Below are positions 1 to 12,911 of a stretch of 12,911 nucleotides of DNA, in pieces. Every line of letters begins with the position of its first letter. Positions within the stretch are counted from its first letter, which is position 1. The stretch lies in the NCBI GenBank assembly GCA_046539235.1, contig JBKHHI010000172.1, forward strand, positions 1-12,911. Direction: 5' to 3'. The translations under genes and the position numbers were made by a program. This stretch comes from Coleofasciculus sp. (lineage in GTDB: Bacteria > Cyanobacteriota > Cyanobacteriia > Cyanobacteriales > Coleofasciculaceae). Below the pieces are notes generated by a model that saw only the letters and a list, made by a program, of their open reading frames with translations, ran no database searches and was not told where the DNA came from.

Positions 1-51
1 TGAATAGTCCATCCGCTGACCAAATAAAATGATTACTCCAATTATCTTGTC

Positions 52-872
52 TGGGAGCATCCCATTTTGGAAAAGAGAGAAAGTTTATTCGCGATTTTAA
101 CTCGCGAATAATGACTTGACTTAAATATTTTCTTGCTCAGAGTCAAAAGAAATATCTAGTAAGCTATTTTTTAGAGAATCAATTGTTTTTTGTAATTCAG
201 ACACCATCGTTCTTTTGGCTACAGCCATTACAGAAGTGACATGGGCTTCACTTCCCGCCTTGCCCAAATGCTTATATTTACTTAATTTGGGCTTTTCACT
301 TGTGGTAGTGAAGGTGGGTGAGCTAGACTGTAGTTTGTAGTACCAGTAAATTAACTTTTAACCCCGTCAACAAATACAAGTCACTCTCAGCATTTTGATA
401 AGATTCATTTGCACTTAAGAGGAGGCAACATTTTTCTAGCAGAGGGCTATGGCGTGTATAAGCTTCTATCCCTAAAGCATCGGCTGGCTTTTTGGTAATC
501 TTTAGCTTACCCAGACAGCTTTTTAGGGTTCGGGTTTTTCCTGGTTTAGTTTGTGTCTTTTTGGTGATAAAAAAAAGGCGATTTGGGGGCTAACGTGTTC
601 TAATATCTGGTTTCTGACTGTAACTTCTATGTCGGCTAAGGTTTCCAAGCTGTCTGTGTCAAAGCGTGTTGTACAGAATCTCACTGGCTCGTTTTAAACA
701 AGCTTCCAGTTCCAGGCGTTCGGCTTGGTTCATGAGTAAACCTTGTGAATATCTACTTCTATATTATGTCACTTTGAGTTGTTCAAGTATACACAGGGAT
801 TTAATTCGCGATTAATAATCGCGAATTAAAAATTGACCTTTCCCGGCTATCTGCCAAAATGGGATGCTCCCA
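52..872 (-). mobile_element. Degenerate non-autonomous IS remnant bounded by terminal inverted repeats; transposase N-terminal fragments resemble ISKra4-type cyanobacterial transposases
   Basis: Perfect 19-bp terminal inverted repeat: tgggagcatcccattttgg (52-70) versus ccaaaatgggatgctccca (854-872). Each end also has a subterminal palindrome containing TCGCGA (85-94/102-111 and 801-813/817-829). Minus-strand reading from ATG at 733 gives MNQAERLELEACLKRASEILYNT, then a stop. Shifted frames continue FDTDSLETLADIEVTVRNQILEHVSPQIAFF and LKSCLGKLKITKKPADALGIEAYTRHSPLLEKCCLLLSANESYQNAESDLYLLTG, then stops. There is no ORF of 60 aa or more. The family assignment is from memory of similar N-termini and is not verified. 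Confidence 0.6.
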
Positions 873-874
873 AC

Positions 875-975
875 GAAACCCGCCTTCGCGGGTTCCAAAA
901 CTCTTAATCTTAATTTATTGTTAGTCCGCACAGGCGGACTTGGTTTGTCTAGCCGCGAATTCCATTCGCCAAGGA
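875..975. repeat. Cluster of small hairpin-forming dispersed repeats (cyanobacterial SDR/MITE-like)
   Basis: Hairpin aacccgc-cttc-gcgggtt (877-894). Hairpin agtccgc-acag-gcggact (923-940), followed by tagccgcgaattccattcgc. These are sequence types that recur in filamentous cyanobacterial genomes. They sit between the IS end and the pseudogene. Confidence 0.5.
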
Positions 976-977
976 AT

Positions 978-2095
978 AGGATTGATGTAGAGCTAATTAG
1001 CCGATGCTATTGGATTAAAGCGCGATCGCACATTAATTTAGGTCAATATTCTGCTGCGATTGAACAGTTATAAATTACCCATCGTATCAGTCAACCGTTA
1101 TCCTATCCTCGGCTTTATCTGGATATTTTAGCGGATTTACATCATCTCTATTGGCAGACAAAAGATTATCTAAAAGCCTTTAAAATTAAGCAGGAACGGC
1201 AAACCGTTGAAACCCAATTAGGATTAAGGGCGTTTATCGGTGCCAGTCGCATTCCATCGATTGTCGGGGCAAACCTCTCTCCAAACCTCTCTCCTTCAAG
1301 GAGAGAGGCTTTGAATACTCCACATTCTGTCCTCAATAGTCCCACTCATCTATTAAATACTCCCCCTTCCCTGGCAGGGAAGGGGGCTGGGGGGTTAGGT
1401 TTCATCGCCCCAGAAATTATCGCATCGGGGCGGGAAAAAGATGTGCGGGAATTGGTGGAACGGGTGACACGGAATGATCATAAAGTTATTGTCCTTCACG
1501 GTTTCTCTGGTGTGGGTAAAAGTTCCTTGGTGAATGCCGGATTAGTGCCAACCCTACGCCAAACAACCGCCAGTGGACAACGCATTCTTCCGATTTTGAT
1601 CCAAGTTTATACCGATTGGCTACAGGAAATTGGGCAGCAATTAACCGCCACGCTAGAAACACACAATATTCCCATCACTCAACCCCTCGACTCTCAAGCC
1701 GCGATTCTAGAAGCCTTGCGCCAGAGTGAAACTCAGCAGGTGCGAATTGTGTTCATTTTTGACCAGTTTGAAGAATTCTTTTTTGTGGCGAATAGAAAAG
1801 CCTTAAGAAATGAATTATTTAGGTTTTTTGGCAACTGCTTAAATATTTTACCTGTTAAGATTATCTTTTCTATCCGTCGGGATTATTTGCATCATTTGGT
1901 AGATAGACCGGGGATGGAAGCAATTGGTAATGACCTTTTGGCGCTTCAGATGACAATACGGTGCGGTTGTGGCGGGTGGAGACATTAGACGACCTGCTGG
2001 TTCGGGGTTGCGACTGGTTGCGGGACTATCTCAGCACTCATCCCGATGTCAGCGATATTGATGAGTTTTGTGCAGGGGAATTAGAGAGGGGGTAG
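978..2095 (+). pseudogene. Remnant of a TPR / nSTAND-type P-loop NTPase / WD40-repeat protein (5' truncated, in-frame stop, internal deletion with frameshift)
   Basis: One frame (mod 3 = 0) reads ..VELISRCYWIKARSHINLGQYSAAIEQL, TAA (1071-1073), ITHRISQPLSYPRLYLDILADLHHLYWQTKDYLKAFKIKQERQTVETQLGLRAFIGASRI.. It continues IAPEIIASGREKDVRELVERVTRNDHKVIVLHGFSGVGKSSLVNAGLVPTLRQ (Walker A GxSGVGKSS), IVFIFDQFEEFF (Walker B) and RRDYLHHLV. At about 1930-1945 homology jumps to frame 2: GASDDNTVRLWRVETLDDLLVRGCDWLRDYLSTHPDV..ELERG, stop at 2093-2095. That is the last WD40 blade plus the typical C-terminal tail of cyanobacterial WD40 proteins. Confidence 0.75.
1270..1400. repeat. In-frame insertion of small palindromic dispersed repeats inside the NTPase pseudogene
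   Basis: Direct repeat aacctctctcc x2 (1273-1294). Hairpin cctctctcc-ttcaa-ggagagagg (1286-1308). Perfect 11-bp stem cccccttccct-ggc-agggaaggggg (1362-1386), followed by ctggggggtt. It translates as ANLSPNLSPSRREAL...PPSLAGKGAGGLGF between conserved protein segments. Confidence 0.6.
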
Positions 2096-2141
2096 AGTGT
2101 TGAATTAGAGGGATTTTTTTACCAAATAACCCTCTGAGTGA

Positions 2142-2231
2142 CGCGATCGCACTCGACCTATTGAGAATAAGAATAGAAGGATAGGCTTTATCAGTGTAGG
2201 TTGAGTCAACCCTGAACCCTGCACCGTAGGG
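2142..2231. repeat. Dispersed repeat copy A (HIP1-containing), upstream of the 2271 ORF
   Basis: cgcgatcgcactcgacct (2142-2159) is identical to 6491-6508. It is followed by related tga(g/a)aataa..ggatag, a short hairpin, and aaccct(ga/at)accct. Confidence 0.5.
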
Positions 2232-2270
2232 CTAAAATTTTCATAGAAACTATTATTCTTCCCTTGAGCT

Positions 2271-2702
2271 ATGATACCAGAATTAACCGTAGAAGCTGCC
2301 AAAATTGTATGCGGTGCAGTTATTGAAACCAGTGTGGGCAAAGCAACAGAAGAGGCAATTATTAAACTGCGAGATACTATAAAGCGCAAATTGTCAAGCA
2401 ATCCCGAAGCCGATCGCGCGATCGCAGCCGCCCAAAAGGGTTCTCAACCGGACTTCGCAAAGGTAACACAGTATTTACAAGCGGCGATGAAACAAGATCC
2501 GGCTTTTGCCCAAGAGGTGGAACGTTTAGCTGGACAGGTTGTGAACATCAGTAGTATAGCCGATCAGCGGACTGTGAATAAAAAGAGCGATCGCAGCAGC
2601 CGCACGGTTCAGGTGAAAGCCGAGACAACAGGCGATATTATTAGCGATATTAAAGCCGACTCCATTGGGCGAATTGGCGGGAAGGATACCCACTACCACT
2701 GA
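2271..2702 (+). CDS. N-terminal helical module plus low-complexity linker of a STAND NTPase, terminated by an in-frame TGA; probably once contiguous with 2811..5303
   Basis: 143-aa ORF: MIPELTVEAAKIVCGAVIETSVGKATEEAIIKLRDTIKRKL...AFAQEVERLAGQVVNISS, then the linker TVNKKSDRSSRTVQVKAETTGDIISDIKADSIGRIGGKDTHYH. It is in the same frame as the downstream NB-ARC ORF, with no other stop between them. This helical-head plus repetitive-linker layout is common at N-termini of cyanobacterial STAND proteins, recalled from memory. Confidence 0.6.
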   Translation: MIPELTVEAAKIVCGAVIETSVGKATEEAIIKLRDTIKRKLSSNPEADRAIAAAQKGSQPDFAKVTQYLQAAMKQDPAFAQEVERLAGQVVNISSIADQRTVNKKSDRSSRTVQVKAETTGDIISDIKADSIGRIGGKDTHYH

Positions 2703-2810
2703 CTACTGGTAGAAAATCAGCGCAGCACCCCACCAAATTTAGATGAAATCCGCCCCAGTACCGATAATTGGCAAGGGCGAAAATTAGAACGCCAAACTAT
2801 TCGGGATTGG

Positions 2811-5303
2811 ATGGCGGATGGGAAGACTCGTTTAATTGGAATTACGGGTATCGGTGGGTTGGGTAAATCGACGCTGGCGGCTAAGATTTACGACGAGGAT
2901 AGTCGCGAATTTGCCGATAAAGTTTGGGCAGATATTAGCCGGATTGGGTTTACCGAGTTAGCGCGGCGCGTCTTATTGAAATTTGGATTATCTCCGGAAA
3001 CCATCCAGGCGATACCTGAACAATCCCTGGGAGATGCATTAGTGAATCATCTACGTCAGGGGCGGTATTTGCTGGTGATGGATAATCTAGAAACCCTACT
3101 GCAATCTGATAGTGAGGATAACAAGAATACGTCTATTCGCGATGAATCCTATCGGCAGTTTTTCTATAGCTGGCTGCAATGTGGCGGCAAAAGTGTGGTG
3201 TTGGTGACAACGAGAGAACGCCTGGATTTGCCACCGATTCGATGTCAATGGTTATCTTTACCAGGATTAGAACCTGTGGAAGGGGCGACGTTATTGCAGG
3301 CGTTGGGAATTCGGGGAACCGAGGAGGAATTCGTCAAGTTTTCCCAGAAAGTAGAGGGACATCCGTTATTATTAACGCTGGTGGCTGGGTTTTTATTAGA
3401 AGAGGAAGAAGTTGATCCACAGATTCGGTATTTGCATCGCTATGGGTTGGCGGATATATCCCATTTATTAACGGATGAAAATTTAAAAGGATTGCATCGG
3501 GGTATAGTTGATATCTGGATGCGGCGGGTATTAGATGAGAGTTTTGGGCGGATTAGTCAGAGAGTGCAGCAATTGGTATTGGGAGTATGTGTTTATCGAA
3601 TTCCCTTCAATTCAGCCATGGCGTTGGCGCAGATTCGTAGTCTCTCTTTTGAAGGGGATTTGGAGGTATCTCAACCTCAAAATAAGCAGGAAAGATCCTC
3701 TCTAGATTCTTCCTTAGATTCTCCAGATTCTCTTAGCCCCCCTTTTGAAGGGGGGTTGGGGGGATCTAAAAGGGGCAACATCGAGACCAAAAGCATTGAG
3801 AAAGATTTTCGCCAGTTGGTGAGACGTTCTCTACTACAGGAAGAGAGAGATAAAGATGGGGGGCGATGGTTTAAGTTTCAGCCATTGATTCAGGAGTATG
3901 CGAAATGCCAAGCGGGAGATTTAACCCAGGCGCATCAACGGGCGATTGATTATTATCGTTTAAATACTCAACAACCTCCTTGGGAAAAAATAGAGGATAT
4001 AACAGAATATCTGGAACTCTTCAATCACTGGTGTGAACTTCAACAGTATATTCCAGCTTTGAACATTCTGCGCTACTGCAATGAGTTTTTAGCATTGCGT
4101 GGGTATAGTCAGATTCAGGTTAAATTGTATAATCAATTAATTGGGGAGTGGAATCGAAGCAAGTTAGATTGGGTATTTGGTGGATTACTTAGAGATTTGG
4201 GAACTACTTATTATCATTTAGGAGAATACAAAAAATCTATCGTATACACGCAGCAGTCTTTAGCTATATTTGAGGGAATTGGTAATTGCACTGATATTGC
4301 TATTTCTCGGCTGAACTTGGGTAACGTTTATTATTTTATAGGAGATTATAAAAAATCAATAGAATACTCTCAGCAAGCTTTGGATTTATTGAAAAATAAC
4401 GGTAATTATTTTCGAGATAACTTTCTTTTACAAAAGTACATTGCTATTTGTCTGAATAATTTAGGAAATGCTTACCGTTCACTAGCAGACTATAAACAAG
4501 CAATTGAATACCATAAAAAATCTTTGGATTTATTTGAAGAAATTGGCGATCACATTAACAGTAAAAAGCTCCTGATAAATTTAGGTAATGTTTATTTTTC
4601 AATGGCAGACTATAAACAGGTAATTGAATACGATAAAAAATCTTTAGCTATATTGAAAGAGATTGGTGATCAAAGTGGAATTGCTAGTTCTTTGGATAAT
4701 TTAGGCTGTGTTTGCAGTTCTTTAGGAGAATATAAAAAAGCAATAGACTATCATAAACAGTCATTATTGATTCGTCAGGAAATAGGAAATCGCAGTGGAA
4801 TTGCTAGTTCTTTATCCAATTTAGGCGCTGTTTACCATTTCCTAGGAGAATACCAACACTCAATTGAATACTATCAACAAGCTTTTGAAATCAAACATGA
4901 AATAGGCGATCGCTGTGGTATGGCAGAGACCTTCGTCGGCTTGGGTAATACTTATAGTTGCTTAGGAGAATACCAACGGTCGATTGAATATTATCAGAAA
5001 GCTATGGTGATTTGTGAAGAAATTGGTGATCGTAATAGTCTTGCTGTTACTCTAGATAATTTTGGGATTGTTTATCATTGCCTTGGGCAATATACAAAAG
5101 CAATAAAATATTTTCAGCAATCTTTAGCGATTCAACGAGAAATAGGTAATCGCAGAGGTATAGCTAATGCATTAGGAAATTTAGGTAATACTTATAATTT
5201 CCTAGGACAATATCAAGACTCTATTGAAGCTTCAATGGAGTCTATGGCGAATTATCCGCGCCTCCATCAAGCGCCAGCCTCAGCACCCATGAGAAACAAT
5301 TGA
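2811..5303 (+). CDS. NB-ARC (AP-ATPase) STAND NTPase with C-terminal TPR array (NLR-like protein)
   Basis: Walker A GITGIGGLGKSTLA (about 2841-2880). Walker B YLLVMDNLE. VLVTTRER (sensor/RNBS-B-like). GHPLLLTLVAG (GxP motif). Winged-helix region ending WFKFQPLIQEYAK. Then 8 full and 1 partial 40-aa TPR units (LGNxYxxLGxYxxxIEYxxQxLxIxxEIGxRxG). The true coding region probably starts upstream of ATG 2811; see findings. Confidence 0.85.
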   Translation: MADGKTRLIGITGIGGLGKSTLAAKIYDEDSREFADKVWADISRIGFTELARRVLLKFGLSPETIQAIPEQSLGDALVNHLRQGRYLLVMDNLETLLQSDSEDNKNTSIRDESYRQFFYSWLQCGGKSVVLVTTRERLDLPPIRCQWLSLPGLEPVEGATLLQALGIRGTEEEFVKFSQKVEGHPLLLTLVAGFLLEEEEVDPQIRYLHRYGLADISHLLTDENLKGLHRGIVDIWMRRVLDESFGRISQRVQQLVLGVCVYRIPFNSAMALAQIRSLSFEGDLEVSQPQNKQERSSLDSSLDSPDSLSPPFEGGLGGSKRGNIETKSIEKDFRQLVRRSLLQEERDKDGGRWFKFQPLIQEYAKCQAGDLTQAHQRAIDYYRLNTQQPPWEKIEDITEYLELFNHWCELQQYIPALNILRYCNEFLALRGYSQIQVKLYNQLIGEWNRSKLDWVFGGLLRDLGTTYYHLGEYKKSIVYTQQSLAIFEGIGNCTDIAISRLNLGNVYYFIGDYKKSIEYSQQALDLLKNNGNYFRDNFLLQKYIAICLNNLGNAYRSLADYKQAIEYHKKSLDLFEEIGDHINSKKLLINLGNVYFSMADYKQVIEYDKKSLAILKEIGDQSGIASSLDNLGCVCSSLGEYKKAIDYHKQSLLIRQEIGNRSGIASSLSNLGAVYHFLGEYQHSIEYYQQAFEIKHEIGDRCGMAETFVGLGNTYSCLGEYQRSIEYYQKAMVICEEIGDRNSLAVTLDNFGIVYHCLGQYTKAIKYFQQSLAIQREIGNRRGIANALGNLGNTYNFLGQYQDSIEASMESMANYPRLHQAPASAPMRNN
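3644..3770. repeat. In-frame small dispersed repeat insertion inside the NB-ARC/TPR gene
   Basis: Two related copies: ctcttttgaaggggatttggaggtatc (3644-3670) and cccttttgaaggggggttggggggatc (3740-3766). The second forms the hairpin cccccc-ttttgaa-gggggg (3737-3755). They encode SFEGDLEVS...PPFEGGLGGS within the winged-helix/linker region. This is the same C-run/loop/G-run + tgggggg architecture as 1362-1396. Confidence 0.6.
4186..5235 (+). repeat. Tandem ~120-bp coding repeats (TPR units)
   Basis: The period is exactly 120 bp in places: agtggaattgctagttcttt at 4674 and again at 4794. The protein units are listed under the CDS. Confidence 0.85.
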
Positions 5304-5378
5304 ACAGATAAACCACCTATCATATAATTTCCACCTACTTCTTCCAACCTTGACAAATTCCCCTCAATACTGCCAATT

Positions 5379-5418
5379 CCTCTGCGTACCTCTGCGTTTT
5401 CCTCTGCGTCCTCTGCGT
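5379..5418. repeat. Short tandem nonamer CCTCTGCGT x4, with 1-3 nt spacers between copies 1-2 and 2-3 (copies 3 and 4 are directly adjacent)
   Basis: cctctgcgt at 5379, 5389, 5401 and 5410. It is followed by a small palindrome ggcac-taaa-gtgcc (5461-5474). Confidence 0.7.
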
Positions 5419-5523
5419 TAAAAAAACATCATGTCGATACCGACACATCGGACAGTATAAGGCACTAAAGTGCCTACTACAAACTATTTTAACCTGTCAT
5501 TGGAGACTGAAGGGAAGAATCTC

Positions 5524-5548
5524 GCCAGATGTATTCGTAACATCTGGC
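5524..5548. terminator. Candidate stem-loop downstream of the PIN toxin gene (weak terminator candidate)
   Basis: Perfect 9-bp stem gccagatgt-attcgta-acatctggc, 20 nt beyond the minus-strand stop at 5569. There is no clear U-tract on the minus strand. Confidence 0.25.
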
Positions 5549-5568
5549 TTCAGGTCATTCTATTTGAT

Positions 5569-5997
5569 TCAGGGGATAATTTCAAAACTTTCACAATGTC
5601 GAGGTCGAAATAATCTAAAGTCACGCTGATCCAATGTTAATATTTTTGTACTTCCAAAGCGTTCGGCTACAGCCATAACACTTGCATCCACAAAATCAAT
5701 CCGACTATCTGCATACTCTGCCAATATTTCTGCTACCCTTTCTATGTCTTGATCGGTCAAGGCAACTAAACGAAATCGACTGGCAGATAGTCCTCGTAAA
5801 AAACTGACTACCGTTGTTATTCCCGCATTACGCCCAACTAAATAAGCCACTTCTGCCAATACGGTTTGTGGTAATAAAATTGCCGATGTTTTGCGTGAAT
5901 AAATCGTCGTCACACTTCTATGCATCGTATCTAAGCGATTCAACAGGGCAACAACAAACCCCGTATCAGCTACGGCTGAGATTCTTTCCATGTCCAC
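5569..5997 (-). CDS. vapC: PIN-domain ribonuclease toxin (VapC-like, type II TA)
   Basis: The acidic PIN residues are in the expected order: AVADTGF (N-terminal D), LAEVAYL (E), IDFVDASVMA (D), LTLDQRDF (D). The protein is about 140 aa. Start is GTG 5997 or ATG 5991. It overlaps the upstream small antitoxin-like ORF. Confidence 0.85.
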   Translation of the reverse strand: MDMERISAVADTGFVVALLNRLDTMHRSVTTIYSRKTSAILLPQTVLAEVAYLVGRNAGITTVVSFLRGLSASRFRLVALTDQDIERVAEILAEYADSRIDFVDASVMAVAERFGSTKILTLDQRDFRLFRPRHCESFEIIP

Positions 5998-6239
5998 CCC
6001 GATTTTTCAGTAATCTCTTGTTGCAGTATTTCTTCTGAACGAATGGCAAGATCACTCGTACTAGCAAATAGTCCCACCAACGGATCAGAGTCAACATTGG
6101 TATTCTCGATTGATGAGGGCGTTTCCTGAGATAGGTTAATTTGTTGGCGAATCAACCTTGACAACGCTTCAATTAATTGCATTTTCTCATCAAGAGTGAG
6201 GCTGCCCGATAGATGGAGTACCTCGTTATAATTAGCCAT
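5970..6239 (-). CDS. Small antitoxin-like protein partnered with the PIN toxin (addiction-module-component-like N-terminal helix)
   Basis: 89 aa. The motif LTLDEKMQLIEALSRLIRQQ resembles the LSxEERxxLxxxLxxSL motif of putative addiction module components. SD-like aaggaaag lies 5-12 nt upstream of ATG 6239. Its stop overlaps the toxin start by 22-28 nt. Confidence 0.7.
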   Translation of the reverse strand: MANYNEVLHLSGSLTLDEKMQLIEALSRLIRQQINLSQETPSSIENTNVDSDPLVGLFASTSDLAIRSEEILQQEITEKSGWTWKESQP

Positions 6240-6338
6240 AGGGTCTTTCCTTGAACAACATTCCTTTGAACACTTATTTTAGCCCAAATAGCCATGTATG
6301 ATGGGCAAAGATTGTCAACCAGAAAATGCCGATAGTAG

Positions 6339-6366
6339 GGTGGGTTTCGACTTCGCTCAACCCACC
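6339..6366. repeat. Small dispersed hairpin repeat
   Basis: ggtgggtt-tcgacttcgctc-aacccacc, a motif type that recurs in cyanobacterial intergenic DNA. Confidence 0.45.
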
Positions 6367-6490
6367 AGCATACCAGTCAGTACCATGTGTTTGTCGTCAG
6401 CGATGGGATGGGAATCGGGCGCAAGACGAGACGCCCTGACAAGGTGGTAAATAAACGGGAGCTTGTAACATCTCGTTACAATGGACTTGG

Positions 6491-6561
6491 CGCGATCGCA
6501 CTCGACCTGCTGAAAATAATAAGGATAGAGTTAAGGGTTCCTCTAACCCTATACCCTCTAC
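6491..6561. repeat. Dispersed repeat copy B (HIP1-containing), upstream of ycf66
   Basis: cgcgatcgcactcgacct (6491-6508) is identical to 2142-2159. It is followed by tgaaaataataaggatag, the hairpin agggtt-cctct-aaccct, and ataccct. Confidence 0.5.
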
Positions 6562-6596
6562 AATGATGAACGTCTGTTTCAAGGAGTATCCGCCTA

Positions 6597-8090
6597 ATGT
6601 TGCCATACGTCCTCGCGTTGGTTATCGGTCTTGGTAGCTTTGCCTATTACATGGCAGCATTCTTTTTTCCCGAAGTCCACCGCAAAAGCGACTTCCTCTG
6701 GAGTGGTGTCGGATTTTTCTACGCCCTCGTCTTGTGGGTGTGCGCCGGACGGATTACCGGGGCGGTACTCCTGAGTCAAATCGCCAGTGTATCCCTATTG
6801 GGCTGGTTAGGCTGGCAAACTCTGATGCTGCGGCGACAGTTGGCTTTACCTGAAGCCCAAACCGAAATTTCGCCCCAAGTTCAGGAAAAAATAGCCAGTT
6901 CTGGGATGTTCCAATTGGCAAAAAACCTAGTGGTTCAACCCGTCGCCCGGGTGTTCCGTAGAAAACCCGTTACACCAACCCCAGTCGTGACTGAACCGGA
7001 ACTCGTGACGGAACCAGCGACGCCAGAGACGGAAATCGCCCCAGCCAAAACGGAAATGGGAGAACCCTTCCCTGGAACAGTTACAGAGATAACTGAGGAA
7101 GTGCAACCGCCATCGGAAGAAAGCGATGTCCCCGTCGCCTCTCCCACAGAGGTAAGAGAGGAAACCCCAGAGGAAACCCTAGAGGAACCCGTAATGGCGG
7201 ATATCACTGAACCGGCTGAAGTCACGGAAACAGTAGAAACAACGCCAACTGAACGGGTAGAGGAACCCCCTGAGGAAACAACGCCGCCAGAACAGATAGG
7301 GGAATTTGCCCCAGACGAGTCTCCAACCCAGACACCCCTAGAAGAATGGACGTTAACCGAGACACCTGTAGCCGAGACACCCCTAGAAGAACAGACGTTA
7401 ACCGAGACACCTACAGAAGAGAAACCCGCAGAAGCACAGACATTAACCGAGACACCTACAGAAGAGAAACCCGCAGAACCCGCCCAGAAACAACCCAAAC
7501 AACGCCAAGGAATTAGTGGCTTCTTCAATAATCTCTTGGGCAAAGGTAAGGCAAAACCCGCTAAAACCAAGGAACCTGAGACAGTATCAGAGGATATTTC
7601 CACTTCACCCGAACCAGAAATCTCTGAATCCAGTCAGCCAGACACCCCACTCAAGGAGTCCCCAACTCCGAGTCAGGGTACAGAAGAAACAGCCGAATCT
7701 GAGGAAGCCCAACCCCCAGAAACCTCAGAGGAAACCTCAAGCGTTGACAGTACCTTAGGGGAACAACCACAGCCACCTAAACCAGAACTCCCGCAGAACC
7801 AGGAAGCCCAACCCCCAGAAACCCCAGAGAAACCAACAGCCGAGGGGACTCAACCCTCCGACTCCAAACAACTCATACGTCCGAATCCGCCGGAACCCGA
7901 ACGGATAGACGCGGCGAACCAATCGGCTGAACCTGAATCCTCAGAATCCCAAGAAATCCCCGTCGAAGAAATTGCGCCAGAATCGCAACTATCGCCCCCC
8001 GCTGAACAGATAGGTGAGGGTGACCCCAAATCCCGCCCATCTTCTGGCGAATCATCCCCAGGTTCAGAAAATCCTCCCCAGTCAAGTTGA
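6597..8090 (+). CDS. ycf66: Ycf66-family membrane protein with a long acidic Pro/Glu/Thr/Ser-rich C-terminal extension
   Basis: The N-terminal ~85 aa, MLPYVLALVIGLGSFAYYMAAFFFPEVHRKSDFLWSGVGFFYALVLWVCAGRITGAVLLSQIASVSLLGWLGWQTLMLRRQL, matches the conserved Ycf66 N-terminal hydrophobic (transmembrane) domain as I remember it. SD aaggag (6581-6586) lies 10 nt before the ATG. The rest is low-complexity and disordered. Confidence 0.8.
   Translation: MLPYVLALVIGLGSFAYYMAAFFFPEVHRKSDFLWSGVGFFYALVLWVCAGRITGAVLLSQIASVSLLGWLGWQTLMLRRQLALPEAQTEISPQVQEKIASSGMFQLAKNLVVQPVARVFRRKPVTPTPVVTEPELVTEPATPETEIAPAKTEMGEPFPGTVTEITEEVQPPSEESDVPVASPTEVREETPEETLEEPVMADITEPAEVTETVETTPTERVEEPPEETTPPEQIGEFAPDESPTQTPLEEWTLTETPVAETPLEEQTLTETPTEEKPAEAQTLTETPTEEKPAEPAQKQPKQRQGISGFFNNLLGKGKAKPAKTKEPETVSEDISTSPEPEISESSQPDTPLKESPTPSQGTEETAESEEAQPPETSEETSSVDSTLGEQPQPPKPELPQNQEAQPPETPEKPTAEGTQPSDSKQLIRPNPPEPERIDAANQSAEPESSESQEIPVEEIAPESQLSPPAEQIGEGDPKSRPSSGESSPGSENPPQSS
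7331..7480 (+). repeat. 45-bp in-frame tandem repeat (~3.3 copies) inside the ycf66 tail
   Basis: Units start at 7331, 7376, 7421 and 7466 (the last is partial). They encode TPLEEWTLTETPVAE / TPLEEQTLTETPTEE / KPAEAQTLTETPTEE / KPAEP. Confidence 0.85.
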
Positions 8091-8115
8091 AACCATGGCG
8101 AATTCTCACTAATGT
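8087..8115 (+). promoter_or_regulatory. Candidate sigma70-type promoter, copy 1 (TTGAAA-17-TAATGT)
   Basis: ttgaaa at 8087-8092 overlaps the ycf66 stop. taatgt is at 8110-8115. The motif is duplicated in copy 2. This is pattern matching only. Confidence 0.25.
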
Positions 8116-8193
8116 AGGGATAAATCAAGAAGGGATAGTCGGGAATAATCCCAACTCCCCCATAAGTACAACCACTAACCAACAGATTGAACT

Positions 8194-8478
8194 GTGACAG
8201 ACGCTAAATCCAACAAAGGCACCGAAAATCAGCCCCAAAATCAACAACTCCCTCAGAACGAGGAAGCACAACCCACGCACCCGCATCCGCCTGAACCCGA
8301 ACTGGTAGAAACGGCGAAACAATCGGCGGAAACTAAATCCCCAAAGGAAATCCCCGTCGAAGAAATTGCCCCAGAATCGCAACTATCGCCCCTGGCTGAA
8401 CCCATAGGTGAGGGTGACCCAAAATCCCGCACCTCTCCTGGCGAAGTATCCCCAGGTTCAGAAAATCCTCCCCAGTAA
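8194..8478 (+). CDS. Chimeric ORF made by the duplication: ileS-derived start (about 15 codons) fused to a copy of the Ycf66 C-terminal tail
   Basis: MTDAKSNKGTENQPQ compares with the ileS start MTEAKSYKDTVNLPQ. LPQNEEAQP...EIPVEEIAPESQLSPLAEPIGEGDPKSRTSPGEVSPGSENPPQ compares with the Ycf66 tail LPQNQEAQP...EIPVEEIAPESQLSPPAEQIGEGDPKSRPSSGESSPGSENPPQSS. It has the same GTG and leader as ileS. Expression is unproven. Confidence 0.4.
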   Translation: MTDAKSNKGTENQPQNQQLPQNEEAQPTHPHPPEPELVETAKQSAETKSPKEIPVEEIAPESQLSPLAEPIGEGDPKSRTSPGEVSPGSENPPQ

Positions 8479-8480
8479 AG

Positions 8481-8510
8481 TTGAAAGGATGGCAAATTCT
8501 CACCCATAAT
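8481..8510 (+). promoter_or_regulatory. Candidate sigma70-type promoter for ileS (TTGAAA-18-CATAAT)
   Basis: ttgaaa at 8481-8486 and cataat at 8505-8510, about 95 nt upstream of GTG 8605. This is pattern matching only. Confidence 0.3.
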
Positions 8511-8604
8511 GTAGGGATAGATCAAGCTGCTTATTGTAAAAAGGGATCATGGGGACTCATCCCAACTCCCCTAGACGTACAACCACTAACCAACAGGTCG
8601 AACT

Positions 8605-11600
8605 GTGACAGAAGCTAAATCCTACAAAGACACCGTAAATCTGCCCCAAACTGAATTTAGTATGCGGGCAAACGCGGTCAAACGGGAACCGGAACTCCAA
8701 CAATTTTGGCAAGACCAACAAATTTATCAGCGACTGTCACAGACGAATCCCGGTGATAGTTTCATCCTGCATGATGGTCCCCCCTACGCGAATGGGGCGC
8801 TGCATATGGGACACGCCCTAAATAAAATTCTTAAAGATATCATCAATAAATATAAGCTGCTGCAAGGGTATAAAGTTCGCTACATTCCTGGCTGGGATTG
8901 CCACGGCTTGCCGATTGAACTGAAAGTCCTGCAAGCCATGGACGCCGAAGAACGCCAAGCCCTAACCCCGATAAAACTGCGGCGCAAAGCCCGAAACTTT
9001 GCCTTGAAAACGGTTGACCAGCAACGTCAAGGCTTTAAACGGTATGGTGTATGGGGAGACTGGGATCACCCTTACCTGACCTTAACCCCCGAATACGAAG
9101 CCGCTCAAATAGGCGTATTCGGTCAGATGGTGCTAAAAGGGTATATCTATCGGGGAATGAAGCCCGTTCATTGGAGTCCCAGTTCCCAAACCGCCTTGGC
9201 AGAAGCGGAGTTAGAATATCCAGAAGGACATACCTCCCGCAGTCTTTATGCGGCGTTTCCCCTGACCAAAGCCACAGAATCTGTGGAAGCTAGGCTAAAA
9301 CCCTATTTAGTGGATTTGGGTGTCGCCATCTGGACAACCACCCCCTGGACAATTCCCGGTAACTTAGCCGTGGCGGTGAATCCCGAACTCACCTACGCGG
9401 TTGTAGAAGTGTCAGGGAAATCAGCCAGTCAGGAGGCGGAAAAATCCTCTAAGTCGAATAAAACAAAGGCAAAAGGATTTGCGCCAACGCCAGACGAGGA
9501 ATCCGCAGACGCAGAAGCATCAGCCGACTCAGACACGGAAGCCGAAGGGTTTAAATACTTAATCGTGGCGGCGGAATTAGTCGAACGCCTTTCTCAAACC
9601 TTGGATAAAGATCTAACCGTCAAAACTACCCTGAAAGGAGAAGAATTAGACCAGTGTACCTATCGCCATCCCCTCTTTGACCGGGAAAGTCCGATTGTGA
9701 TTGGTGGCGATTATATTACCACCGAATCAGGTACGGGATTAGTTCATACTGCACCCGGTCATGGTCAAGAGGATTATATCGTCGGTCAGCGCTACAATTT
9801 ACCGATTATCTCTCCTGTAGATGGAAATGGAGATTTTACCACCGAAGCTGGACCCTTTGCTGGGTTAAATGTGCTGCGGAATGCGAATCCGGCGGTGATT
9901 GACGCCCTGAAAGAGGCGGGTTCGTTCCTTAAAGAAGAAAACTACGTCCATAAATATCCCTACGATTGGCGCACTAAAGAACCAACTATCTTCCGGGCGA
10001 CGGAACAATGGTTTGCGTCGGTGGATGGTTTCCGGGAAGAAGTGATGAAAGCAATTCAATCCGTTGATTGGATTCCTTCCCAAGGTGAAAACCGGATTAC
10101 CGCTATGGTGTCGGAACGTTCCGATTGGTGTATCTCCCGCCAACGGAGTTGGGGTGTACCGATTCCGGTGTTTTATGATCAGGAGACGAATGAACCTCTA
10201 CTGACAGAAGAAACCATCGCCCACGTACAAGGGATTATTGCCGAAAAAGGGTCCGATGCGTGGTGGGAATTGTCGGTGACGGACTTATTACCCGAATCCT
10301 ACCGAAATAATGGTCGCACCTACCGCAAAGGCACCGATACGATGGATGTCTGGTTTGATTCCGGTTCGTCTTGGGCGGGAGTTGTGCAAGAACGTGAGGA
10401 ATTATCCTACCCTGTCGATATGTACCTGGAAGGGTCAGATCAACATCGGGGTTGGTTCCAATCCAGTATCCTCACCAGTGTGGCAACAAATGGTTGTGCG
10501 CCCTATAAATCAGTATTAACCCACGGCTTTGTTCTGGATGAACAAGGGCGTAAAATGAGCAAATCTGTGGGCAATGTGGTAGACCCCGCGACGATTATTG
10601 AAGGGGGGAAGAATCATAAACAGGAACCGCCTTATGGGGCGGATATGCTGCGGCTATGGGTGTCGTCTGTGGACTACTCAGTCGATGTCCCTATTGGTCA
10701 AGGAATACTCAAACAGCTTTCCGATATTTATCGCAAGATTCGCAATACGGCGCGATTTTTATTGGGGAATCTGCATGATTTTGACCCTGCTAAAAATGCG
10801 GTGGCGTATGAACAGTTACCGGAATTAGACCGTTATATGCTGCACCGGATAACGGAGGTGTTTGGTGAGGTGACTGAGGCGTTTGAAAGTTATCAGTTTT
10901 TCCGTTTCTTCCAAACGGTGCAGAATTTCTGTGTGGTGGATTTGTCTAACTTTTATTTAGATATTGCGAAAGATCGTCTGTATATCAGTCATCCAGATTC
11001 GGTACGACGGCGCAGTTGTCAGACGGTATTAGCGATCGCACTGGAAAATTTAGCTCGATCCATTGCGCCTGTATTATGCCATACAGCAGAAGATATCTGG
11101 CAATATCTGCCTTATCCGACTCCCTATAAATCAGTGTTTGAGTCAGGATGGGTGCAGTTAGATGAAACCTGGAAAAAGCCAGAATTGGTGGAGAAATGGA
11201 CAAGGTTACGGAATATCCGCACTGAGGTGAATAAGGTTTTAGAGCAAGCCAGGACAGAGAAGATGATAGGCTCTTCTTTAGAAGCGAAAGTGTTGCTCTA
11301 TGTCCCTGATGCTCAATTACGCCAACAGTTGCGGAAATTAAACCCCAGTGGGATTCCGCGCCTGTGGTTGCAAACCCCGAAACCGGAACTGATGATGATG
11401 GAACAGGAACCCGAAGCAGCATTAGCTTCAGAAATGCTGTCCTCACAGACAGAAGCACAAGAGTGGAACTTTAACCAAATTCTGTCTAATGTATTGGTGA
11501 CGCTACGCCAGGTTTTCAGTGAAAATCAGCGCGTATGGTTAACGGTGGGGGTAGTGGTGGCGATACCGATTACCTTAAAAGTAACCGCAACGGTATTAGA

Positions 11601-12111
11601 TTCGATCGCACGTTTACCCTTATTGGCTGATATGTTGCAACTGGTGGGGATTGGCTACAGTGCATGGTTTGTCAATCGCTATTTACTCCGCGCCCCCAAT
11701 CGGCAAGAATTAGCCCAGAAAGCGCGATCGCTAAAAACTGAGGTATTGGGTGAAGGTTCTCCCCAACCGGAACCTGCGACGACTGAACCCGCCGTCGAAC
11801 CCCCAGCGCCAGTACAACCCCAACCCCAACCCCAACCCAGAATTCTAGGGGAACGGTTTATGGTTCTCAGTAACGGGGTGGATGAGTTGCGCTATCTGTT
11901 TTTAGCCTCCCAAGTTGAGGTATTAGAGTCCCCGGATGCGATTGAAAATGCTGACTATCACAGTCAGTCAGAACACGTCTGGGTGGGGGTTGTCAAAGCT
12001 GAAGGCGAAAAGTGCGATCGCTGCTGGAATTATTCACCTTTTGTGGGTAAAATTATCGAGCATCCCACGATTTGTGAACGGTGTCGGGCGGCTTTAGCGG
12101 GCCAATGGTAA
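8605..12111 (+). CDS. ileS: Isoleucine--tRNA ligase (class I) with two lineage-specific insertions, including a CAAD membrane-anchor domain
   Basis: N-terminus MTEAKSYKDTVNLPQTEFSMRAN. HIGH-type motif PPYANGALHMGHALNK. KMSKS in GRKMSKSVGN. Editing-domain motifs (TTTPWTIPGN, HTAPGHGQEDY). C-terminal Zn-finger CDRCWNY...CERC. GTG start at 8605. Confidence 0.97.
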   Translation: MTEAKSYKDTVNLPQTEFSMRANAVKREPELQQFWQDQQIYQRLSQTNPGDSFILHDGPPYANGALHMGHALNKILKDIINKYKLLQGYKVRYIPGWDCHGLPIELKVLQAMDAEERQALTPIKLRRKARNFALKTVDQQRQGFKRYGVWGDWDHPYLTLTPEYEAAQIGVFGQMVLKGYIYRGMKPVHWSPSSQTALAEAELEYPEGHTSRSLYAAFPLTKATESVEARLKPYLVDLGVAIWTTTPWTIPGNLAVAVNPELTYAVVEVSGKSASQEAEKSSKSNKTKAKGFAPTPDEESADAEASADSDTEAEGFKYLIVAAELVERLSQTLDKDLTVKTTLKGEELDQCTYRHPLFDRESPIVIGGDYITTESGTGLVHTAPGHGQEDYIVGQRYNLPIISPVDGNGDFTTEAGPFAGLNVLRNANPAVIDALKEAGSFLKEENYVHKYPYDWRTKEPTIFRATEQWFASVDGFREEVMKAIQSVDWIPSQGENRITAMVSERSDWCISRQRSWGVPIPVFYDQETNEPLLTEETIAHVQGIIAEKGSDAWWELSVTDLLPESYRNNGRTYRKGTDTMDVWFDSGSSWAGVVQEREELSYPVDMYLEGSDQHRGWFQSSILTSVATNGCAPYKSVLTHGFVLDEQGRKMSKSVGNVVDPATIIEGGKNHKQEPPYGADMLRLWVSSVDYSVDVPIGQGILKQLSDIYRKIRNTARFLLGNLHDFDPAKNAVAYEQLPELDRYMLHRITEVFGEVTEAFESYQFFRFFQTVQNFCVVDLSNFYLDIAKDRLYISHPDSVRRRSCQTVLAIALENLARSIAPVLCHTAEDIWQYLPYPTPYKSVFESGWVQLDETWKKPELVEKWTRLRNIRTEVNKVLEQARTEKMIGSSLEAKVLLYVPDAQLRQQLRKLNPSGIPRLWLQTPKPELMMMEQEPEAALASEMLSSQTEAQEWNFNQILSNVLVTLRQVFSENQRVWLTVGVVVAIPITLKVTATVLDSIARLPLLADMLQLVGIGYSAWFVNRYLLRAPNRQELAQKARSLKTEVLGEGSPQPEPATTEPAVEPPAPVQPQPQPQPRILGERFMVLSNGVDELRYLFLASQVEVLESPDAIENADYHSQSEHVWVGVVKAEGEKCDRCWNYSPFVGKIIEHPTICERCRAALAGQW
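11350..11868 (+). other. CAAD-domain-encoding insertion within ileS (two transmembrane helices plus a Pro-rich linker)
   Basis: Between conserved LRKLNPSG and NGVDELRYLFLASQVEV lie about 173 extra aa. They contain RVWLTVGVVVAIPITLKVTATVLDSI (about 11530-11605) and LPLLADMLQLVGIGYSAWFVNRYLL (about 11614-11688), then RQELAQKA. This is the CAAD/CURT1 signature. It is followed by PQPEPATTEPAVEPPAPVQPQPQPQP, with (caaccc)x4 at 11815-11838. Confidence 0.85.
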
Positions 12112-12113
12112 AC

Positions 12114-12148
12114 TGTCATTTGTCATTCGTCATTTGTCATTCGTCATT
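12114..12148. repeat. Heptanucleotide tandem repeat (STRR-like), (T/C)GTCATT x5
   Basis: tgtcatt tgtcatt cgtcatt tgtcatt cgtcatt, starting 3 nt after the ileS stop. Confidence 0.9.
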
Positions 12149-12213
12149 CGTTCAATCAAGGAATTCTCGCCTTCACAATTGGCTTTGCCGTATTTATAGC
12201 TGTCGCCAGTAGT

Positions 12214-12280
12214 GTTAGGACAGTATTGATTTGTAGAGACGTTCCGGCGGAACGTCTTCAGGAATTGTGTTGATCCTAAC
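12214..12280. repeat. Nested hairpin, MITE/SDR-like element
   Basis: Outer arms gttagga (12214-12220) and tcctaac (12274-12280). Inner perfect stem agacgttcc-ggc-ggaacgtct (12237-12257), a recurrent cyanobacterial repeat type. Confidence 0.5.
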
Positions 12281-12452
12281 AGATTTGTCTACTGCTATAT
12301 GGTGATAAGCTGTTCGGCATTTAAATCTTAATGTCAATAATAGCGAAAGGATGGTAGTGCGTTTAGCGAAGCCATGCCGCAGGCTTTGCATCTTGGTCGC
12401 TACTAATACCCAATTTAAATGCATGACAGCTTAAGGAAAAGGTACTGAATGT

Positions 12453-12911
12453 TCAGTCACCTACAAACGTTCCGCTACCCAGTGATAGTTTAGCGTTAAA
12501 AGTACCCTGAATCTCGGTTGCCATTTTCGGTACGCACAGATAGAGTTTTCCTGGCAGGTAATCTCCCTGTCGCTGACCAATCTGCAAAAATACTCGGTAA
12601 TCTAGGTCGTCAAGTGTACTGTAATCCCACAACGTATAATGATCGACATCCGAATCCTCTTGCAGGTTCTTTACATACTCCGTTGCATCAACACGATAAT
12701 CCCAGATACTTTCGCGTTCTGTGCCGTATCTTCCTCCGTAAGCATAGGTTGTTCCTTCCGCCTTGGACGTGTAATACTCTATCGGTTCTACAGGAGACGA
12801 AGCACCAATGAGTATGTCAAAGATAAATAACACTGTGATTGCCTGGGGATCAAGATTTCCATGCTGTATCCGTAGTTTAGGAAACGAAATATCTGACTTG
12901 TCTAAGGAAAA
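12453..12911 (-). CDS. Hypothetical protein, 5'-partial (ORF open to the right edge of the window)
   Basis: The frame of the listed 126-aa ORF stays open upstream of its GTG (12833) through 12911: FSLDKSDISFPKLRIQHGNLDPQAITV then LFIFDILIGASSP... The real start therefore probably lies outside the window. I recognise no motif. It is convergent with ileS. Confidence 0.55.
   Translation of the reverse strand, partial: FSLDKSDISFPKLRIQHGNLDPQAITVLFIFDILIGASSPVEPIEYYTSKAEGTTYAYGGRYGTERESIWDYRVDATEYVKNLQEDSDVDHYTLWDYSTLDDLDYRVFLQIGQRQGDYLPGKLYLCVPKMATEIQGTFNAKLSLGSGTFVGD

Follow-up and report, generated by a model that had tools for sequence, protein, structure and literature searches.

A lineage-specific tandem duplication across the ycf66–ileS boundary of a Coleofasciculus species and the probable accidental origin of its chimeric 94-codon reading frame

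Between ycf66 and the isoleucyl-tRNA synthetase (IleRS) gene ileS, the filamentous cyanobacterium Coleofasciculus sp. GCA_046539235.1 carries a short open reading frame (ORF) that begins like ileS and ends like ycf66, and is annotated by NCBI as a hypothetical protein. The locus raises the question of whether this chimeric ORF is a young gene, a by-product of a duplicated control element of ileS, or a scar without function. The window analysed is the whole 12,911-nucleotide (nt) stretch of contig JBKHHI010000172.1 (positions 1 to 12,911). An earlier reading of it, referred to below as the original prediction, recognised a tandem duplication at this place and proposed that selection may maintain the ORF product, the duplicated leader, or both. 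The comparisons reported here favour a lineage-specific tandem segmental duplication whose redundant parts have since decayed neutrally and whose ORF is accidental; the probability of this reading is estimated at about 80%.

Structure and occurrence of the duplication

The duplication consists of two collinear copies arranged head to tail as a direct repeat. The duplicated unit starts ~300 bp before the ycf66 stop codon, the last ~100 codons of ycf66 making up the coding part of copy 1, then crosses the ileS promoter and leader, and ends at ileS codon ~15–16. A global pairwise alignment gives 86.2% identity between the copies, with 51 differences in 369 ungapped columns. Copy 2 lacks 60 nt and 6 nt present in copy 1, and copy 1 lacks 3 nt and 14 nt present in copy 2. 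The repeat search recovered the same arrangement as four collinear direct-repeat families with a spacing of 394–411 (Table 1). The tandem duplication described in the original prediction, with one end inside ycf66 and the other at ileS codon ~15, is reproduced, its boundaries falling within a few bases of those given there, and both the repeat search and the alignment bear out the second copy of the ileS upstream region. The in-frame fusion of 94 codons was also found where it had been placed; its product begins MTDAKSNKGTENQPQ. Both parental sites of the junction are A-rich and contain AAAC, and the breakpoint is blurred by later substitutions and a possible small indel. Several junction models were compared by eye for the exact breakpoint, and none was clearly best.

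The duplication was present in every assembly identified for this Coleofasciculus species, namely four metagenome-assembled genomes (MAGs) at NCBI and at least three independent Logan run assemblies. The exact 94-residue product is encoded in two NCBI MAGs and several Logan run assemblies, and an L37Q variant in two further MAGs. The order ycf66, ORF, ileS is identical in all these contigs, which share 99.0–100% identity with the window, and the frame of the ORF is open in all strains seen. The original prediction had proposed a check of related genomes for the single or duplicated state. Five other Coleofasciculus species, with ileS DNA 89–94% identical to that of the window, have a single ycf66-(117–126 nt)-ileS copy and no repeat: GCA_964474785.1, D1-CHI-01 (with four Joint Genome Institute metagenome contigs 99% identical to it), B1-GNL1-01, GCA_046565525.1 and C. 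chthonoplastes PCC 7420. The presence of the duplication in all assemblies of the species, together with the single copy in the five others, indicates a lineage-specific event and not an assembly artefact. Besides, a derived 15-nt insertion (PSSGE/TSPGE) is common to both window copies and absent from all five other species, which places the duplication on the window lineage after the split. No single-copy strain of this species was found among the assemblies; one Logan contig merely starts inside copy 2, 157 nt upstream of ileS.

Table 1. Coordinates of the duplicated locus and its parts in the window (boundaries of the two copies are approximate)
Feature	Position	Strand	Description
Copy 1	7786–8245	+	Functional Ycf66 tail, then decayed ileS promoter and leader, then decayed ileS start
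Copy 2	8246–8651	+	Decayed Ycf66 tail, then functional ileS promoter, leader and first ~16 codons
Duplication junction	8239–8248		Region of ileS codon ~16 joined to ycf66 position ~7780; read from the sequence, breakpoint placement inferred
Chimeric ORF	8194–8478	+	GTG to TAA, 94 codons: 15 ileS-derived codons, junction, second copy of the Ycf66 tail
ycf66-family gene	6597–8090	+	497 amino acids; Pfam PF07444 Ycf66_N at residues 4–79 (E 5.3e-28), then long Pro/Glu-rich tail
ileS	8605–12111	+	1168 amino acids, GTG start; Pfam tRNA-synt_1 (2e-140), Anticodon_1, CAAD (7.8e-26), zf-FPG_IleRS
Functional ileS upstream region	8479–8604	+	126 nt; 96% identical to the D1-CHI-01 orthologue
Functional ileS promoter, probable	8481–8510	+	TTGAAA-18 nt-CATAAT; promoter scan, 10/12 matches
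Degenerate ileS promoter copy	8087–8115	+	TTGAAA-17 nt-TAATGT; the CATAAT -10 box, invariant in the genus, has lost its first bases through a CCA deletion
Redundant ileS leader copy	8091–8193	+	10 lineage-specific substitutions, 3-nt and 14-nt deletions
Repeat family 1	7868–7943 / 8268–8343		79% identity
Repeat family 2	7953–8109 / 8347–8503		90% identity
Repeat family 3	8110–8129 / 8507–8526		95% identity
Repeat family 4	8127–8244 / 8538–8655		85% identity

Asymmetric decay of the two copies

The two copies have not diverged alike. An alignment of the five single-copy species from the ycf66 stop to ileS codon ~20 comprises 189 columns, 149 of which are invariant. Copy 1 is altered at 24 of these 149 columns, all counted before the junction, and copy 2 at only two. 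Among the changes in copy 1 are the loss of CCA from the -10 box and of 14 nt from the leader, two altered bases shortly before the GTG, and five altered codons. In the segment made up of the intergenic region, the initial 45 nt of ileS and the few remaining bases before the junction, 18 substitutions fall on the branch of copy 1 and three on that of copy 2 (binomial P=0.0015, with D1-CHI-01 alone as outgroup). The -35 and -10 hexamers and the spacer of the promoter adjoining ileS are invariant across copy 2 and the five other species, and the promoter scan was passed by the copy-2 site only, the copy-1 site failing it. The ileS upstream region differs by ~4% from its D1-CHI-01 orthologue, compared with a synonymous divergence (dS) of 0.28 in ileS for that species pair. 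Judged from its sequence, the ileS upstream region is clearly functional, and the constraint on the leader appears genuine only in the ileS-proximal copy; a selective constraint on the upstream leader copy, which had also been suggested, is not supported.

As for the nature of the leader, no relevant Rfam family was matched, even at E up to 10, and its fold is no more stable than those of shuffled sequences (z-scores -0.6 to -1.9). Compensatory changes were seen in none of the 23 predicted pairs among six sequences of the genus, whose divergence is too low for this count to be decisive. Since there is no Rfam family, no unusual fold and no compensatory change, the region is read as a promoter followed by a sequence-conserved 5′ untranslated region. 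No conservation of the leader was found beyond the genus, except for the promoter hexamers (TTGAAG-18-CATAAT) and the stretch CCCAACTCC in one Microcoleus MAG. In the ancestral arrangement the -35 box of ileS starts 2 nt 3′ of the ycf66 stop codon.

The beginning of the chimeric ORF has decayed together with the rest of copy 1. Its first 45 nt differ from those of ileS at 8202, 8212, 8219, 8225 and 8231; as had been claimed, all five differences are non-synonymous, and all of them are derived in copy 1. Five of the 15 ileS-derived codons are changed at positions invariant in six functional genes, which agrees with the view that the IleRS constraint has been lost at the N-terminus of the chimera.

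The reverse is seen in the Ycf66 tail, for which the copies were aligned and the ratio of non-synonymous to synonymous rates (omega) was estimated, as the original prediction had advised, from ~54 synonymous and ~168 non-synonymous sites. With five outgroups, the branch of the true Ycf66 tail in copy 1 carries four synonymous and two non-synonymous changes (3 + 3 with one outgroup). The branch of the chimera tail in copy 2 carries three synonymous and 13 non-synonymous changes (4 + 14 with one outgroup), plus the 60-nt and 6-nt deletions; the non-synonymous asymmetry between the branches is significant (P=0.007). The omega values are ~0.16–0.3 for the true tail and ~1.1–1.4 for the chimera tail, the whole Ycf66 tail giving 0.42 between species; dS between the two tail copies is 0.24. 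The C-terminal motif of Ycf66 is kept in the five other Coleofasciculus species. The best-conserved tail block of the genus, RPNPPEPEQVDAAN, reads RPNPPEPERIDAAN in Ycf66 and HPHPPEPELVETAK in the chimera.

The resemblance of the tail motif and of the leader in both copies had been taken as a hint of selection on the peptide, the leader, or both. This hint finds no support: the similarity is what an even 86% identity leads one to expect, and the omega of the chimera tail branch speaks against selection on the peptide. The differences between the copies are evenly spread, and the longest identical run, 29 nt, is matched by 48% of shuffles. A gene-conversion tract or a locally conserved motif shared between the copies was rejected on the same grounds of even spread.

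Strain polymorphism was considered as a further test of constraint and set aside as uninformative, because the single nucleotide polymorphisms (SNPs) form clusters resembling recombination tracts and because exact or near-exact identity of the ORF had been the criterion for retrieving the strain contigs, a source of bias in the sample. The SNPs at the locus lie in tight clusters, and the interval 7655–8937 holds only one, 8303 T/A, non-synonymous in the ORF. Comparison of 5242–12911 with three strain contigs (L002, L087 and L004) gave clusters at, for example, 6396–6458, 9291–9345, 11109–11196 and 11739–11795, with SNP-free gaps of up to ~1.3 kb. Such clustering suggests recombination tracts rather than clock-like divergence.

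Several peculiarities of the two flanking genes were observed along the way. Copy 2 and all five sister species have TAA as the ycf66 stop codon, which in copy 1 is mutated to TCA at 8083; the change adds two residues (SS) to Ycf66, and the new stop, TGA at 8088–8090, falls within what was the -35 hexamer of the decayed promoter copy. The ycf66 tail contains three tandem repeats of 45 nt (15 amino acids; TLTETP..E..P.EE) at 7330–7478. Strain differences cluster in these repeats (7413–7423 and 7468), where the two Ycf66 protein variants differ, and look like exchange between repeat units. The antisense ORFs 7850–8182 and 8253–8525 are mirror images of the stop-poor, C/A-rich tail. In IleRS, residues ~262–315 (~9390–9550) form an acidic, Ser/Lys-rich low-complexity insertion in the catalytic/editing region, and residues 967–1049 (11503–11751) correspond to the CAAD domain, a known cyanobacterial thylakoid membrane-anchor domain (PMC4893482).

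Origin of the insert and its possible functions

A single duplication of ~460 bp, dating from the ancestor of this Coleofasciculus species, would explain the pattern. An A-rich site near ileS codon 16 would have been joined to a site ~300 bp before the ycf66 stop (~7780), most likely by illegitimate (short-homology) recombination or by replication slippage. The resulting order would have been an entire ycf66, followed by a redundant set of ileS promoter, leader and 15 codons that is fused to an equally redundant tail of Ycf66, and finally an entire ileS with its promoter and leader; because the unit crosses a gene boundary, both genes were left complete. From then on, purifying selection would have been confined to the parts that serve a real gene: in copy 1 the tail of Ycf66, and in copy 2 the start of ileS with its promoter and leader. 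The redundant segment between them, 8091–8478, would have drifted at an approximately neutral rate. The 94-codon ORF would then be an accidental in-frame fusion that has so far acquired no stop codon or frameshift. The middle piece shows the unconstrained change expected of a remnant, with omega ~1 and invariant positions lost, and its frame is intact. A neutral duplication scar, which the original prediction had named as the alternative to selection, seems the better fit.

An open frame of this length is unremarkable with regard to stops, since only 4.2% of the possible substitutions in the ORF create one; after ~23 substitutions, the frame would still be free of stops with a probability of 0.37. 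Several other points weigh against pure neutrality. The fusion and both deletions within the ORF (60 nt and 6 nt) keep the frame, compared with deletions of 3 and 14 nt in the non-coding copy. The naive chance of the frame being kept is ~1/27, and multiplying it by the 0.37 for no stop gives a lowish value, a post hoc estimate. The 60-nt deletion is flanked by CAAC(C/T)C repeats at 7809 and 7869, which are in phase and separated by exactly 60 nt; because of this and of the post hoc nature of the estimate, frame preservation is a weak residual hint rather than evidence. A fresh 0.4-kb perfect tandem repeat is normally lost readily by homologous recombination, and the survival of this one to 14% divergence, together with its fixation, could reflect some benefit. 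Copy 1 has also kept, in part, the -35 hexamer, a -10-like TAnnnT hexamer spaced 17 nt from it and the context of the GTG start, and transcription and translation of the ORF from these elements are still conceivable. All the counts, moreover, are small, amounting to tens of substitutions. That the insert is useful in some way, as a newborn small disordered protein with the Ycf66 C-terminal motif made from a recycled ileS promoter and start, or as a spacer or second promoter uncoupling ileS transcription from ycf66, is nevertheless considered unlikely.

A role in the expression of ileS (or ycf66) would mean that the duplication was kept as a second tandem promoter and leader, or as ~390 bp insulating the ileS promoter from the transcription and translation of ycf66. 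Such a role would accord with the evident function of the ileS upstream region, with the persistence and fixation of the duplication despite the instability expected of tandem repeats, and with the TTGAAA and TAnnnT hexamers that remain in copy 1; the terminator scan found no terminator-like site on the plus strand between ycf66 and ileS. The loss of genus-invariant positions from copy 1, including those of the -10 box and the leader, is however the pattern of relaxed constraint, a benefit of insulation is pure inference, and the compact arrangement suffices in five sister species. This explanation is therefore regarded as quite improbable.

The chimeric ORF as a young functional gene fares worse. 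It would encode a small disordered protein with the Ycf66 C-terminal motif, its frame kept by selection; this is very doubtful, and equally so is the accompanying proposal that its transcription would start at the duplicated ileS promoter or read through from ycf66, with the ileS-type GTG as the translation start. In its favour are the intactness of the ORF in all assemblies, the in-frame fusion and internal deletions, the NCBI annotation, and a distal tail, EIPVEEIAPESQLSP...IGEGDPKSR...SPGSENPPQ, which still resembles the true tail and whose motif is kept in Ycf66 across the genus. This resemblance is, however, no greater than even divergence predicts, and the most conserved motif of the genus is the one that was changed. 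The omega of the chimera branch, the N-terminal changes and the sole strain polymorphism, non-synonymous without exception in the last two cases, point the same way, as do the -10 deletion in the promoter copy and the changes of two genus-invariant bases just before the GTG. The chimeric product had no Pfam match, hence no Ycf66_N domain, and contains only the non-domain tail; a protein-database search with it returned only its own 90% cluster, consisting of itself and the L37Q variant.

Membership of the chimera in the Ycf66 family was rejected for want of the Ycf66_N membrane domain. A functional IleRS fragment was likewise rejected, as the product has no class I catalytic core and only 15 ileS-derived codons.

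A mis-joined or expanded repeat in a MAG can practically be dismissed: all the assemblies are short-read and one Logan contig does begin inside copy 2, but the same arrangement recurs in the separate MAGs and run assemblies, with strain-level SNPs elsewhere in the locus, and the 51 differences and four indels between the copies mean that assembler collapse or expansion cannot have made one from the other.

Relation to known systems and neighbouring loci

As a type of event, the scar of a partial tandem duplication with a chimeric ORF is already known. The locus resembles other gene-boundary tandem duplications with decay in its head-to-tail copies, single-copy relatives, intact flanking genes, fused middle fragment and relaxed redundant halves. 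Unlike a typical bacterial tandem repeat, it is unusually old, with 14% divergence between the copies and the tail dS given above, and is fixed in the species; unlike a typical duplication scar, its fused fragment is still an open frame of 94 codons with a start codon. The complementary loss, in which each copy retains what one of the real genes requires, recalls duplication–degeneration–complementation (subfunctionalisation), but no gene was fully duplicated here and no function partitioned. The placement of the unit with respect to the two genes is enough to explain the complementary decay. Like young chimeric or de novo genes arising from partial duplications, the ORF combines a borrowed promoter and start with an in-frame fragment of another coding sequence, and is restricted to one lineage; it differs from them in showing no sign of selection beyond neutrality and in having a damaged borrowed promoter.

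Leader-mediated control of aminoacyl-tRNA synthetase genes is known, for example in the T-box leaders of ileS in Firmicutes and Actinobacteria. The strongly conserved ~90-nt untranslated region before ileS is similar to T-box-type leaders in this respect, but differs from them in having no Rfam match, a fold like that of shuffled sequences, no compensatory changes and a conservation limited to the genus, save for the promoter hexamers in the Microcoleus MAG.

In practical terms, the 94-residue hypothetical protein of these MAGs is best treated as a duplication remnant and not as a gene. The locus illustrates, in nature, how two genes can both stay intact when a duplication crosses the boundary between them, and how complementary decay then follows. 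The pattern of decay also reveals which parts of the region are under functional constraint: the C-terminal motif of Ycf66, and the 126 nt of ileS promoter and leader, which are nearly invariant within the genus. If the insert were useful after all, the locus would represent a datable birth of a gene from a recycled aminoacyl-tRNA synthetase promoter and start codon.

Several other features of the window were noted. A sub-threshold Rfam match to CRISPR-DR28 on the minus strand at 922–945 (26 bits against a gathering score of 35, E 0.38) is probably due to chance. At the right edge, the ORF at 12453–12833 on the minus strand is one of three diverged paralogues arrayed in tandem (208, 211 and 203 amino acids; 82–91% DNA identity; 8799–10949 of contig L001). 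The array adjoins a gene with eCIS_core and Ntox6 toxin domains, and its members may be the immunity genes of a polymorphic toxin locus. Upstream of ycf66, a PIN-domain protein (142 amino acids, Pfam E 4e-13) overlaps a small upstream ORF (5970–6239, 89 amino acids) on the minus strand at 5569–6239, and the pair is probably a VapBC-type toxin–antitoxin system; at the corresponding position, the sister species D1-CHI-01 carries another PIN pair. STAND NTPase genes or fragments, one with nSTAND1 (225 amino acids) and one with NB-ARC and many TPR repeats (830 amino acids), are located on the plus strand at 1311–1988 and 2811–5303. The neighbourhood upstream of ycf66 varies between Coleofasciculus species.

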